A stretch of 64,000 nucleotides of DNA from Candidatus Spyradenecus sp. (GCA_045535075.1 JAZSKX010000007.1:192306-256305), one strand, 5' to 3'. Counted from the stretch's first letter, positions 1 through 64,000 are shown. The notes: a model not told the origin generated them from the sequence alone. A program made the numbers and translations.

Positions 1-3000
1 TTTGCCGCGCTTGCATTGACCGAATCAAGCGTTTGAGAAATGACTTCGATGTTTCCTTCCCGGATTTTAACCGTTCCCGCCGTAATCGTTGTACTCGCGA
101 GCCAAAACGACGCTTTTCCGGTTTTCGTCAGTGTGTGTCCGCCGAGGTCGAGTTGGTTGGCTGCGTATCCGTCGGAGACCATGCCGAAATCGGTATCGAC
201 TTGAATTGTGGAATCTGCGGTGAGCGCGATTGCTCCGTCGCCGCTTGCAATTTGCTTCGATGTGCTTCCGGTTGCGACCGATGCCTTGAGCGTGCCGCCC
301 GCGAGCGTGTACGCGGGAGTCACACCGTCCATGTTGACGGCGAGTTCCAAAACGCTGCCTGTGTTCACGGTAATGCGACCGGAGCCAAGCGCGTTTTTGT
401 TCGTGATTTTCAGCGTTCCCGCGCTGACGAGCGTGCCGCCGGAATAGGTGTTGGCGGAACTCAGTTCGAGTGTTCCCGCGCCGAGTTTTTCAAAGCTTCC
501 CGCGCCGGAAATGTTTCCTGCGTAAGTTGCGGATTGGTCAGTGTCTGTGACGCTGAGTGCAAGCGTGCCTTCCGAAATTTTTACGGAATTTGCAACGGAA
601 GAAGCATCTGCGGCGAGGACTAGTTTTCCCGCGCCGAGTTTTTGAATTGTTCCCGTCGTCGAGACGGAATTTTCAAATGTTGCAATTTTGTTTTCCGCGA
701 CGGAAATCGTTCCGCCGTCGATTTGAGAAAATCGGACGTCCGTTCCCGTGGACGAGAAAGCAACGTTTTCCGTTGCCGTCATGTTTCCGGCAAGAACGCT
801 TTCCGTGATGTCGATTTTTGCATCTGCCGTCGAGAATGTTACCGCATCGCCGTCATAAAACGCATCGGCGGTTCCGTTGTTCGTCCAGTTTTGCGTGTTT
901 TTGATATCCCAGACATTGCTTCCGTTTTGTGAAGCCCAAACAAGCGACGCAGACTTTTGGCTTGCATCAAGGATGACGACAATTCCGTCTGTTTCGACAT
1001 TGAAGCCGCTTCTTTCCGAAAGCATGACACCGTCTAGGGTGAAGTTTATTGCTTTCAGAGAATCCCAGTTCGTAATCGTTCCGCCGGAAGAAATCAGTGT
1101 ATAGGCGCCGTCGTTTCCGGCAGTAAGATTTTTAAGTTCGAAGACGACGTTTTCGCTGTCGACGGAGACCGTTCCCGCATTGGCAATCGTTTGCGAAAGG
1201 ATGAGCGTTCCCGCGAGGGAGAGCGTCGCATTTTCGGAAACGGAAAGATTACCTTGAAAATTTGACGATGTCAGCGCCATTGAACCCTCTTCGACGGCGA
1301 CATTCACCCCGGCGACGACATTGCCGGAGAGGGTCATCGTTCCTGCGCCGATCTTCGCCAAATTCGAATTGGTGTTTGCCTGATTCTGGAGGCTTCCCGA
1401 AAAGTTCAGGTGAGCGTTTTCGGAAACGTTAATGTCTAATTCGCCGCGGATGCGCACGCGGGCGGAAAGTTTGGAGTCCGCCGTAACATTAACGACATTG
1501 CCGTTGTTAATGAAGTCAAGGGCGGCGATGTCGTCTCCGGACCCGGAAACGGTCCCGCCCGCAATCGTCAGCTTATTTCCGGCGCCGAATGTCCAGCGAT
1601 TGTTAAAATGCAACTGTGCTCCGGCATTAACCGTAATGGAATTCGACGCATTGTAATTAAGCCCGTCCGTTGTGCTGACAAGTAGCCCCGAGCCGTTGTT
1701 AAGAACGAGCGACGACGATAGGGCTTGCTTTTGGACGCTGATTACCGAGATACCGCTGTTCAAAGTGAGGACGCCGTCGGTATAAGAAGAGCCGGAAAGC
1801 GTCATTGTTCCCTCGTTTACGGTCAGATTCCCGGAGAGCGTTCCCGAGTGGAGCAGGCGCCCGGCTCCGAGCTTCGTCAATGTATTACTGCCGGTCGTAA
1901 TTGCGCCGGAAATCAATCCGAACTCGCTACTTGAATAAATCTGAAGGCTTGCGTCGTCTGAGAGCGTAATATTCCCGGAAATTTGAGCGCTGTTTGCCAG
2001 TCGCAACGCCCCTGCCTTTGCGGAGTCGCTTGAGGCGTTCCAGCCTGTTCCCGCGAGCGTGAAGTCGGCAACGTGTGCTCCCGTCGCTGCGTAGTATTGC
2101 CCGCCGTTGTTGACGACAATTTTGTTTGCCGGGCTTGAGTCTGCTTGGAAGCGTCCGCTGTTGAGCTGAATCGTGCCGAGTTTTCCGAGATTGAGCGCAA
2201 CTTCCTGAGAGCCGTATTCGAGCACCAAGACTCCCGATTTTTCGGAGGAATTATCGACAATAATCCCGCCGTTGACTGTGTTGATACGCGTGTCAAATGT
2301 TTGTGTCGTGCCGTTGAGGTCGAGAGTCCCGCCTGCGCCGACGGTTACGGAACTTGCGTTTGTCAGTGCATTATCGGCGGAGAATCCGAGCGTGATGTCG
2401 CCTTCGGTCAGATCGGTTTTTGTGCTGTCATAGCCGATGACATTGACCGTTCCCGTGAGCGTTGCCGCCTGCGCGAGAATAATTTTTCCGCCGGAATAAG
2501 TCTGTCCGTCGACGAGAAGATTATGTGATTTGCCGTTACGGTCGTTTAAAACCGCATCGACGGTGAGCGTTCCCGTCGTGCCGCCGAAGCGGTAAGTTGT
2601 GTTGTCTTCGCCGAGAGTGATGCCTGTAATCGTTTTGTCCGTGTCGGTTCCCAAATGAGCATCGGAATACCCGCTTCCGCTGATGTTGATTGAGGCGCCT
2701 GAATAGTTGTCTAAAAGCAAAACGCCTTCGGACCCGGCGGCGAAGTTCGGGAGTGCGTCTGCCGTTGCGGACATACGGTTCGTGTAGGGCAGGGTGAAGA
2801 ACGAAGTTCCGAGCGCGCCGGCGACGTAGTTCAGCGTAATTTGTCCGTTGAATTTAATTTCACCGGAAAAATCATTGGCGGAGTTGGCGAGCGTTACCGT
2901 GCCTTTGCCGTATTCGTTCCCGAGAATGAGATCGTTTTCGCCCGAGAGTTGGAACCATACGATGAGCTCGCCGCCTCCGCCGCCGAGCACCCACGCGTCG

Positions 3001-61915: not shown

Positions 61916-64000
61916 ATGAAAAATTCTCTTGCGCTTCTTTCCCGTGCACAACTATTGGCAATGGCAGGGCTTGCTGTTGCCGCGATCTCAGCTCCCGTCG
62001 CACGAGGCGGCGGCATGCATGAGGATGTTGACAAACGGACCTATTCCGACTTTGGGCAGAACAAGGGGCGCTTTCGAGTAACCGGCATCAGTTCGATGCT
62101 ACAGGCAATTCGCGAGAAAGACGGAGGTATTGCAATTCCTAAAGCAAACGGCGAAGTAACCTGGGTGCTTCCGGAAGCTCAGGGAATGATTAACTTCGCC
62201 GGTAGTCTGGACTACGGTGCCACCGGAACGCAATGTCACGGTGCCGCTGCTGCGTTCGGCTCCAACTATCTGGTCACGGTGGCACACAATCCCGGATTCA
62301 GTGCCAGTTTCGGCGTAACTCAGCTGGGCAGCGCACACAGCATTAAATACAGCACGGTGCAAATCTCTGAGAAAGATTTGATGAGTGCCGCTGACTGGGG
62401 ATTGTATCGTCAGAACAAGATCTATACGGACGTGGTCGGTGCCTACAATTATAGTGGTGTTACCTCCGAGCAGCAGGACAGCGATAAAAACGGTATTCCT
62501 GACATCAAAGAGCAGCTTGAAGGTGAGCTGATGTACCGTGCTTTTGCCGGAGGTGTTGTGGTATGGGGAAAAGACGGCAAACTGGTTGATGCCGGCACCC
62601 CGTATACCACTATTCTGGGCGGCATCTCCACCATACGAGCCATCGCTATCACGACAGAGGGTCTCATCTTCGGTGACTGGAACATGAAGACGGAGTCTTC
62701 CTGGGTCAATGAATCGGCACCGCTGCCCACCAACGCTCAGGGAGGCGACTCAGGGTCCCCCGTCTACGTCTACAACCAGGAAGCCGGACGCTATGAATAC
62801 ATCTTCTCCCTGCGAGCCGGCAACGCCACTACCTACTCTGTGGCTCACGGCTCCATCGACTTCGCTAACCAGATTCTGGACACGCACAGCGTTGAGGTGG
62901 ACATGAGCACCACGAACACGGCGCAGCTGGAAGCAGTGACCAACGGAAGCGGCCTCATCACGGTGGGTAATACCACCTACAAACATCTTGCCGTGAACTC
63001 CGGCAGCAACACGTGGAAAGATCTTTCAGCCGTCAAAGACAATGCTAACTGGTACGCCTACGGGAATCATTACCAGAATGGCATCGGCGGTCTGGGCAAC
63101 ACCCAGAACCTCATATTTACCGGCAATGGCGGTGAGCATGACATTATCCTGAATGCCACGGTAGACACCGGTGTTGGCTATCTGGAGTTCAATAATGGCA
63201 GCTTCACCATCAAAAACGCAGAAGGGGGCGATTACACGCTCAATTCCGCGGGATACGTAATTAACGAAGGGGCGGAAGTCCACGTGCAACTGACCAACCC
63301 GGCGGACTATATGCGCGAATGGCGCAAGAACGGTGCGGGCGATTTGTACATTGAGGGCGAGGGTGACAACAACATCCTGCTGGCAGTCGGCGGCAGCGGC
63401 ACCACCTATCTGGACCGGCAAAACGGCCATGCTGCCTACAATGTGCTGGCCAGCAGCGGTGCTACGGTAGTCATCTCTGACACCAACCAGATTGAGCGAG
63501 CCTTCACCTTCGGGCTCAACGGCGGCACGCTGGACATGAACGGCAACTCCATGGATTGGTACACCACCAATTCCAATATCGAAGCCGATGGTTTCAGCAT
63601 CAACGCCCTGACGGATGATGCCCTCATCATCAACAGCAGCGGCAGCACCACCATGACCTACAAACAGGCCGGTAACAGCGTCTGGAAAGGCTCTCTGAAG
63701 GATTCCGCCGACGGTTCTCTGAGCGTCATCGCAGATATGGGAGCAGGCTCCGTATGGACCATGAACAGCATCTGCACCGACCTCAGCAACAATGCTACCA
63801 GCTCCTTTACTGTCAAGAGCGGCACCGTTGTACTGGCCGGCATTAACACCGAACACGGCACCGGCTCCGTCCCGTACAGTGATGCCATCTTCTTCTCTGA
63901 GGATGACTGGCACTACGCCGATGCCAAGATGAACGTCACGGTAGAAAACGGTGCCACGTTCCAACTGGGCACCCACGCCCGCGTCAAAGGAGATATCACG
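61916..64000 (+). CDS. Second S6-family serine peptidase with beta-helix passenger, paralog of 1..5789; 3' end outside window
   Basis: ATG 61916, signal peptide, YSDFGQNKGRF, TVAHN, GDSGSP (62744-62761); shares NSAGYV.N.GAEVH..LTNPADYM.EWRKNGAGDLYI and DWHYADAKMNV with the first copy; open to the window edge. Confidence 0.85.
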   Translation, partial: MKNSLALLSRAQLLAMAGLAVAAISAPVARGGGMHEDVDKRTYSDFGQNKGRFRVTGISSMLQAIREKDGGIAIPKANGEVTWVLPEAQGMINFAGSLDYGATGTQCHGAAAAFGSNYLVTVAHNPGFSASFGVTQLGSAHSIKYSTVQISEKDLMSAADWGLYRQNKIYTDVVGAYNYSGVTSEQQDSDKNGIPDIKEQLEGELMYRAFAGGVVVWGKDGKLVDAGTPYTTILGGISTIRAIAITTEGLIFGDWNMKTESSWVNESAPLPTNAQGGDSGSPVYVYNQEAGRYEYIFSLRAGNATTYSVAHGSIDFANQILDTHSVEVDMSTTNTAQLEAVTNGSGLITVGNTTYKHLAVNSGSNTWKDLSAVKDNANWYAYGNHYQNGIGGLGNTQNLIFTGNGGEHDIILNATVDTGVGYLEFNNGSFTIKNAEGGDYTLNSAGYVINEGAEVHVQLTNPADYMREWRKNGAGDLYIEGEGDNNILLAVGGSGTTYLDRQNGHAAYNVLASSGATVVISDTNQIERAFTFGLNGGTLDMNGNSMDWYTTNSNIEADGFSINALTDDALIINSSGSTTMTYKQAGNSVWKGSLKDSADGSLSVIADMGAGSVWTMNSICTDLSNNATSSFTVKSGTVVLAGINTEHGTGSVPYSDAIFFSEDDWHYADAKMNVTVENGATFQLGTHARVKGDIT

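Follow-up and report, generated by a model that had tools for sequence, protein, structure and literature searches.

A hyperabundant asymmetric motif in Candidatus Spyradenecus and its possible role as a self-DNA uptake signal

Introduction

A 64,000 nt stretch of DNA (G000:C8:192306-256305, hereafter the window; G000 is the source genome, Candidatus Spyradenecus sp., GCA_045535075.1) contains the short word CGGGAAC, or its complement GTTCCCG, throughout its length. The question raised by this locus is what the word represents and which force maintains it. An earlier, sequence-only reading of the window had put forward three mechanisms, namely biased DNA uptake with recombination, a methyltransferase-linked process and a chromosome-organising protein. 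Here, the motif was followed through the G000 assembly (1,949,087 bp in 18 contigs, G+C content (GC) of ~52%) and through its relatives. All genomes compared were metagenome bins and, being related, were non-independent.

According to the introduction of a 2025 preprint on DNA uptake enhancing sequences (DUES), sequence-specific DNA uptake has been described in only two proteobacterial families. The preprint gives uptake sequences as words of 9-10 nt, present in hundreds to thousands of copies that occupy up to ~2% of the chromosome and use some reading frames more than others. As a hallmark it names inverted pairs in terminators, where about half of the copies are found.

Results

The window was found to hold 250 copies of CGGGAAC/GTTCCCG (107 on the plus and 143 on the minus strand), and 100 dinucleotide-preserving shuffles of the same DNA gave 14.82 ± 4.20 copies with a maximum of 25. 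This corresponds to 3.9 per kb, compared with 3.35 per kb for the whole G000 genome, where 6528 copies were counted on both strands, 24.7-fold over the base-composition expectation. The excess rose with word length: the 8-mer CGGGAACG was present in 5159 copies (one per 378 bp, 75-fold over base composition), the 9-mer GCGGGAACG in 3244 copies (182-fold over the zero-order expectation) and the 10-mer GCGGGAACGC in 1614 copies (about 350-fold over base composition), and RCGGGAACG occurred 4510 times on both strands. Motif words headed the k-mer ranking of G000 at k = 7, 8, 9 and 10. The 8-mer alone made up 2.1% of the sequence, and motif words overall ~1.5-2.1%. The hand counts of the sequence-only reading (7 in 1-1215, 15 in ligA, 9 in dxs at 27134-29032 and 12 in the SNF2 gene at 31302-33815) were exact, and its expectation of ~0.14 per kb agreed with the 0.135 per kb (264 copies in 1.949 Mb) of a zero-order model. 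A confinement of the enrichment to this contig, which it had considered, was not observed, as every large contig carried 2.4-3.2 8-mers per kb.

The full motif was determined as R-CGGGAAC-G(C), which is non-palindromic. Among 6920 GGGAAC cores of G000, C preceded the core in 94% and G followed it in 77%, and position -2 was occupied by G in 60% and by A in 25%. The information content was flat outside positions -4 to +7 (~11 positions), therefore the word does not belong to any longer repeat unit. Flanking AT tracts of the kind seen in the uptake signal sequences (USS) of Pasteurellaceae were not present around these cores, so that the USS architecture is not shared. The specificity was sharp, the 1614 copies of the consensus 10-mer comparing with 0-192 for variants with a single mismatch in the core.

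Genes were approximated by greedy longest open reading frames (ORFs), a proxy that comprised 1587 ORFs over 92% of G000 and over-calls coding sequence. Approximately 87% of the motif copies lay inside these ORF proxies; in the window, 230 copies were inside and 20 between them. All six frames were occupied, with a bias in their use (302-1464 copies of the 8-mer per frame). In the sense orientation, frames 0, 1 and 2 held 419, 1464 and 773 copies encoding RER, (A/T)GT and xGNx, respectively, and the antisense frames 0, 1 and 2 held 358, 302 and 1167 copies encoding RSR, xFP and xVPx. A further 676 copies were intergenic or at an ORF edge; this DNA makes up 8.4% of the sequence and holds 13% of all copies. 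The six frames listed in the sequence-only reading were recovered at 29119(-), 29262(-), 29771(-), 27212(+), 27477(+) and 27072(+), in agreement with the genome-wide classes. Of the copies that it had assigned to promoter regions, those at 5876 and 59374 lay outside ORF proxies, and the one at 22172 was located at the very start of an ORF.

The earlier claim that codon or amino-acid bias does not explain the motif was borne out by two nulls. A within-gene synonymous-codon shuffle left 318 sense and 190 antisense 8-mers versus 2660 and 1830 observed, an 8-10-fold excess, and 90 sense and 73 antisense 8-mers remained after full codon permutation. A maximal-order Markov model predicted 5030 8-mers against the 5159 observed. 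This agreement is uninformative, since the 7-mer sub-words are themselves almost all motif copies and the comparison is circular.

The strand totals of the 8-mer in G000 were 2527 (plus) and 2632 (minus). The leading strand, assigned from GC skew with the motif masked, carried CGGGAACG in 54.8% of copies, hence the strong replichore skew that the sequence-only reading would have taken as a sign of another role was absent. Intergenic copies were split 337/312, and sense copies accounted for 62.7% within co-oriented genes and 54.5% within head-on genes. The spacing of the 7-mer in G000 was near exponential (mean 295 bp, coefficient of variation (CV) 1.09), with 27 gaps of 2-5 kb and one of more than 5 kb. 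In the core genome it was slightly more even than random (CV 0.926 vs 1.004 ± 0.012), an effect somewhat inflated by the removal of long gaps.

Further, the motif was found in inverted pairs. G000 contained 170 pairs of the form GTTCCCG-N6-16-CGGGAAC, of which 119 were intergenic, 46 in ORF proxies and 5 at ORF edges. Typically, such a pair read aaaaaGC-GTTCCCG-YG..loop..CR-CGGGAAC-GCttttt. When intergenic hairpins with a perfect stem of at least 7 bp followed by a T-run were counted per strand (n = 300), 167 carried the motif as GTTCCCG...CGGGAAC, 4 carried it in the opposite arrangement and 129 were without it. Judged by their sequence, the motif-pair hairpins are terminator-like.

The motif was scarce in acquired DNA, and many annotated motif-free gaps of G000 proved to be foreign, among them the prophages and defence loci listed below and other low-GC genes. 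Two Mu-like prophages with a host-like GC of 52-54% held 0.79 and 0.88 7-mers per kb versus 2.8-3.3 in equal-sized flanks, i.e., the motif was about 4-fold rarer there. Defence islands with restriction-modification, Hachiman and reverse transcriptase genes held 0-1.7 copies per kb. In IMG/VR, 30 viral contigs with the motif-pair hairpin were found, none of them above 0.77 7-mers per kb, a result that says little on the phages of the genus.

Named relatives were found through LigA and were gut metagenome-assembled genomes (MAGs) titled Candidatus Spyradenecus, Candidatus Spyradosoma, Opitutales or Verrucomicrobia. Every one of the 19 genomes of one Opitutales genus (Ca. Spyradenecus/Spyradosoma MAGs) showed the enrichment; GCGGGAACG occurred 340-5581 times in them versus 35-87 for the reversed control. 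The enrichment was found in none of 102 genomes from four other genera of the family and in none of the 12 other families of the order that were sampled. The GC of sampled stretches ranged from roughly 50 to 62% within the genus, and the enrichment is independent of GC content. It was thus confirmed that the motif is a genome-wide, clade-specific signal at the DNA level, and the observation is stronger than the earlier reading had it.

Four genus members were motif-poor, namely G001, G002 and G013 with ~730-760 9-mers each and G014 with 340. A dialect was sought in them and rejected: 58-80 kb of G001, G013 and G014 carried the usual motif, less densely, with no other word in its place. The candidate dialect CGGGTACG of the sister genera was rejected as well: it seemed enriched in 100 kb of G031 but was at the control level genome-wide in 36 genomes of the four genera. 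Within the genus, this word, one mismatch away from the motif, was rare in many motif-rich genomes (0-5 copies vs 30-50 per strand for the reversed control) and at the control level in motif-poor G001 and G013. Its rarity may reflect an avoidance of GTAC, which it contains, or a conversion of near-matches.

The conservation of sites was measured in blastn alignments to G000, which favour conserved genes, with the sharing of any 7-mer as the baseline. Motif-rich G018 shared 501 of 841 G000 sites (59.6%, baseline 18.5%) and motif-rich G003 shared 118 of 183 (64.5%, baseline 18%). In the motif-poor genomes the values were 41 of 222 for G001 (18.5%, baseline 22%), 55 of 227 for G013 (24.2%, baseline 23.5%) and 6 of 98 for G014 (6.1%, baseline 13.4%). 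Orthologous stretches, which provide a better null than the Markov model, contained 56-69 sites in motif-poor relatives versus 222-227 in G000. In the reverse direction, 73-80% of the residual sites of G001 and G013 were common to G000, which identifies them as relics and not as new gains. Sites conserved between G000 and G018 survived in motif-poor genomes in 23 of 75 cases versus 3697 of 7229 for other conserved 7-mers, a test with small numbers in which three of the four motif-poor genomes are closely related to one another. Of the 15 ligA sites of G000, 7 were found at the same columns in most of the distant motif-rich genomes. In the close motif-poor relatives L001-L004 most G000 sites were mutated, often at several bases, and L001 shared 3 of 15. 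It was concluded that the sites are kept by some force other than protein-coding constraint, that this force can be lost, and that the two motif-poor lineages lose sites at the background rate.

The identity of RecJ to that of G000 was 91-92% for motif-poor G001, G002 and G013, 86-87% for motif-rich G018 and G004, 77% for motif-poor G014, 70-72% for ten motif-rich genomes and 56-57% for motif-rich G008 and G009. The motif-poor genomes thus occupy two separate positions in this order, which, being that of one protein and not a tree, implies at least two independent losses. As a separate observation, the gene order near recJ was scrambled: none of 17 relatives (L111-L127) kept the G000 recJ neighbours, even at 92% RecJ identity.

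The genes of a possible uptake apparatus were examined in G000 and across the genus. Of the components that the sequence-only reading had named, ComEC was present and ComEA was not found. ComEC of G000 was a protein of 570 aa in which the Competence domain alone was detected, and DprA carried a winged-helix domain; both were encoded in 19 of 19 genus genomes, as were three PilB/PilT-type ATPases and RecC, motif-poor genomes included. A PilM-to-secretin operon of G000 resembled Akkermansia Amuc_1101, Amuc_1100 and Amuc_1098, with matches below curated cut-offs, and is probably related to the Akkermansia region Amuc_1101 to Amuc_1098. The ~990 aa secretin was present in 18 of 19 genomes and missing only from G005, which is motif-rich and 92% complete. 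Only six prepilin-like ORFs were found in G000, four clustered adjoining ruvX and two orphans, and they matched generic prepilin N-terminal models alone.

None of these genes followed the losses of the motif. ComEC, DprA, RecC and the three-ATPase cluster were ruled out as the lost gene by their presence in 19 of 19 genomes, and a loss of pilins was ruled out by the four-pilin cluster and both orphans, which were intact in the motif-poor genomes. A flag for an internal TGA in a G014 pilin corresponded to no internal stop in the tblastn alignment of residues 1-218, and a split pilin gene of G002 lay at two contig ends. A second secretin of ~780-880 aa was present in 7 of 19 genomes; it was dismissed as a correlate of loss, as it occurred in the four motif-poor genomes but also in motif-rich G004, G012 and G018. 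A fourth T2SSE-type ATPase match was dismissed likewise, as it was found in the four motif-poor genomes but also in G004 and G018, with four matches in G006 and G017 too and not in G012. G000 had neither the second secretin nor the fourth ATPase.

Discussion

Of the three mechanisms named at the outset, uptake with recombination fits best: the word is asymmetric, occurs equally on the two strands, forms pairs in terminators, is scarce in prophages and defence islands and is confined to one genus. The methyltransferase-linked process met with evidence against it. By analogy with known systems, we propose, with a probability of about one half, that R-CGGGAAC-G(C) serves this one genus as a self-DNA signal of the type of USS and of the DNA uptake sequences (DUS) of Neisseriaceae, maintained by a DUES-like drive of uptake and recombination. 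The motif would be bound preferentially by a component of the type IV pilus/ComEC/DprA apparatus at the cell surface or in the periplasm. Uptake and recombination would then favour conspecific fragments with the motif, and motif-bearing alleles would steadily displace motif-less ones. Such a drive would fill all tolerant positions, i.e., permissive frames, intergenic DNA and terminator stems, and recently arrived DNA, such as prophages and defence islands, would stay motif-poor. Lineages that lost the preference would let their sites decay at the neutral rate.

In scale and form the motif matches DUS and USS. All are short non-palindromic words in thousands of copies, covering ~2% of the genome, equal on the two strands, biased among frames in genes, also intergenic, and arranged in inverted pairs that form terminators. 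They are scarce in recently acquired DNA and each confined to a single clade, and genes for ComEC, DprA and a type IV pilus are encoded in the present genus as well. To our knowledge, only the uptake sequences of Neisseriaceae and Pasteurellaceae have been reported to combine an asymmetric 9-10-mer in thousands of copies, strand symmetry, a bias among frames, terminator pairs, scarcity in acquired DNA, confinement to one clade and lineage-specific loss. The present motif differs from these in its phylum and in its unrelated sequence, USS-type AT-rich flanks are absent, and neither a dialect, in samples of up to 100 kb, nor a ComEA was found. None of the titles and abstracts searched (subscription-only papers and supplements were outside the search) described the motif or reported uptake sequences for Verrucomicrobia, in keeping with the earlier statement that no such motif was known to have been described for Verrucomicrobiota. 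A literature search by the motif letters gave, judged from titles, primer-type matches alone among the matches listed.

Several observations weigh against the uptake signal. The motif density is several times that of DUS or USS, and a high density combined with an invasion of coding sequence is more like HIP1. No dialect was seen in the genus or beside it, and no other hyperabundant word turned up in four sister genera, each sampled over 100 kb at most. ComEA was not found in G000, where the sole strong HHH_3 match lay in an 805 aa ORF. No receptor was recognised among the candidates found, and no comparison of the pilin-like ORFs with ComP or ComN was made. ComEC, DprA, the secretin, the ATPases and all six pilin-like ORFs are intact in motif-poor lineages too, hence the losses give no pointer to the transformation apparatus. 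The presence of ComEC and DprA is weak evidence, as both are encoded in many control genomes as well. The Mu-like prophages still hold the motif at ~6 times the chance level. Finally, with ~87% of copies in ORFs, 340 of 6528 copies (~5%) are in terminator-type pairs, in contrast to about half for DUES.

The main rival is a selected binding site similar to HIP1 (GCGATCGC) of cyanobacteria, where the word would be kept by selection for an abundant cytoplasmic DNA-binding protein in nucleoid or chromosome organisation or another genome-wide process, and would decay after the loss of that protein. We regard it as rather unlikely. Both words are 8-mers with about one copy per gene or denser and occupy all frames, and the enrichment found here (75- to 350-fold at k = 8-10) is in the same range as that of HIP1, which is reported to be 15- to 300-fold over-represented and in some genomes to exceed one copy per gene. 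The conservation of orthologous sites far above the baseline (59.6-64.5% vs 18%) is also the argument for selection in the report on HIP1. The slightly more even spacing in the core genome and the failure of any competence gene to track the two losses also agree with such a site. However, the spacing effect is small and partly inflated by the removal of long gaps, and no candidate binding protein was found. HIP1 is palindromic and spread over most of a phylum, whereas CGGGAACG is asymmetric and limited to one genus. A structural role also does not predict the strict GTTCCCG...CGGGAAC arrangement of terminator stems (167 vs 4).

A mutational or repair drive, in which sequence-specific repair, modification or gene conversion, possibly linked to a methyltransferase, turns near-matches into the motif and restores decayed copies within the cell, was judged improbable. 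It would explain the very sharp specificity and the partial enrichment of resident prophages, and a lineage-wise loss of maintenance is what would be expected of a single enzyme. Known repair biases, however, shift word frequencies modestly and not 75- to 350-fold. The search for an enzyme also counted against it. The DNA methyltransferases found in G000 were all located in motif-poor low-GC islands or in prophage, neither Vsr nor DndC was found, and an MmeI-type methylase had a match in 2 of the 5 motif-rich genomes tested. An N6_N4 methylase was without a match in motif-rich G000, G004 and G006, yet was present in motif-poor genomes. No surveyed methyltransferase or modification gene was conserved in all motif-rich genomes, the C5 (PF00145) and N6_Mtase (PF02384) families being outside the genus survey.

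A polar signal read by RecBCD or FtsK, similar to Chi or to FtsK-orienting polar sequences (KOPS), is close to excluded. As Chi, KOPS and architecture-imparting sequences, the motif is a non-palindromic 8-mer enriched in the core genome of bacteria that encode RecBCD (RecC in 19 of 19 genomes), and it is depleted in the prophages, both of which encode Mu Gam. Unlike them, it has no meaningful replichore polarity; the residual leading-strand bias fits a G-rich word at a GC skew near 0.05 together with a gene-orientation bias, and not such a role. RecC is intact in the motif-poor lineages, and inverted pairs in terminators are unexpected for a polar signal. The copy number is also much higher than that of Chi or KOPS, one copy per 378 bp being far denser than any known Chi.

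The view that the motif is a by-product of coding or terminator sequence, through codon or dipeptide preference or as fragments of repetitive extragenic palindromic (REP) or miniature inverted-repeat (MITE) elements, is likewise close to excluded and was refuted: the most-used frames encode common small residues and the maximal-order Markov expectation nearly equals the count, but that agreement is circular (94% of GGGAAC cores are preceded by C), the synonymous shuffle removed most copies, orthologous stretches of motif-poor relatives and sister genera are without the excess, and REP/MITE repeats are ruled out by the flat information outside -4 to +7 and by the 87% of copies in ORF proxies.

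If the uptake signal is real, it may represent a third, independently evolved uptake-sequence system, the first outside Proteobacteria, in an uncultured gut-associated genus of Verrucomicrobiota, and the densest known (up to ~one 9-mer per 300 bp in some species). This wider claim is tentative and stands somewhat short of even odds. It would mean that the recognition of self-DNA arose repeatedly, natural competence would be expected in a group without genetic tools, and the lineages with a lost drive, at least two in number, could let comparative genomics alone find the receptor. Whatever the mechanism, a strong force rewrites ~2% of the genome, in all frames, and provides most strong terminators with their stems. 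As a natural knockout series, the motif-poor sister lineages offer a route to the responsible gene and a measure of the neutral decay of a driven motif. Additionally, the motif is a sharp marker of the genus that could help with contig binning, the spotting of foreign DNA and the design of transforming DNA.

Other features of the window and of acquired regions

The coordinates of the features are collected in Table 1. Abutting inverted motif pairs numbered 21 in the G000 genome.

Table 1. Positions of motif arrangements in the window and of acquired regions in G000. Positions without a contig prefix refer to the window.
Feature	Position	Strand or setting	Remarks
Motif field, 250 CGGGAAC/GTTCCCG	1..64000	both strands	195 are the 8-mer CGGGAACG, 113 the 9-mer GCGGGAACG
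Inverted pair GTTCCCG-N12-CGGGAAC with A-run and T-run flanks	24040..24065	intergenic	bidirectional terminator-like hairpin
Abutting inverted copies GTTCCCGCGGGAAC	25035..25048	inside ORF	
ligA with 15 motif copies	29038..31296	+	7 positions common to distant motif-rich relatives
Inverted motif pair, longer spacer N21, then T-run	36424..36458	intergenic	
Four-copy cluster	37527..37574	intergenic	near-palindrome GTTCCCGCGCGGGAAC and overlapping tandem CGGGAACGGGAAC
Inverted pair GTTCCCG-N9-CGGGAAC, then T-run	39750..39772	intergenic	terminator-like
Motif-pair hairpin, then T-run	50220..50245	downstream of the 47087-50146 ORF	coding by the ORF proxy, probably wrongly
Motif-pair hairpin	50533..50558	inside a ~500 bp tandem non-coding repeat	
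Motif-pair hairpin	51039..51064	same ~500 bp tandem repeat	second copy
Motif-pair hairpin, then T-run	60744..60770	~250 bp downstream of tRNA at 60421-60494	
Mu-like prophages	G000:C16:183400-218800; G000:C8:20700-35500	outside the window	Gam, MuB-like AAA ATPase, Mu portal, Gp27, terminase
Low-GC defence islands, four loci	G000:C9:57000-68000; C2:15700-22300; C12:44600-49000; C12:72700-80400		

The contents of the low-GC islands were varied. They included a type I restriction-modification system with Hachiman (HamA and helicase), an MmeI-like type IIG enzyme adjoining a 937 aa reverse-transcriptase protein, an NgoBV-type system (C5 methylase) with an AAA_15/AbiEii-like ATPase, and another type I system accompanied by an Abi_C protein. 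One of the Mu-like prophages carried a C5 DNA methylase, and one ORF of the prophage regions gave a weak match to an ADP-ribosyltransferase domain.

Long ORFs opposite real genes were common in the window, such as 9178-10812(-) versus 9526-10791(+) and 27134-29032(+) versus 27695-29197(-). For this reason, simple ORF lists over-call coding sequence in G000.

A search of the window with Rfam returned the tRNA at 60421-60494 and nothing else. The region 50236-51230 was a non-coding stretch between two ORFs and consisted of tandem units ~500 bp apart, up to 267 nt in length and 61-96% identical, each of which terminated in a motif-pair hairpin with a T-run after it. Comparable hairpin units were also found at G000:C1:128900 and 129268. 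The tandem units of 50236-51230 may be small-RNA genes in tandem.

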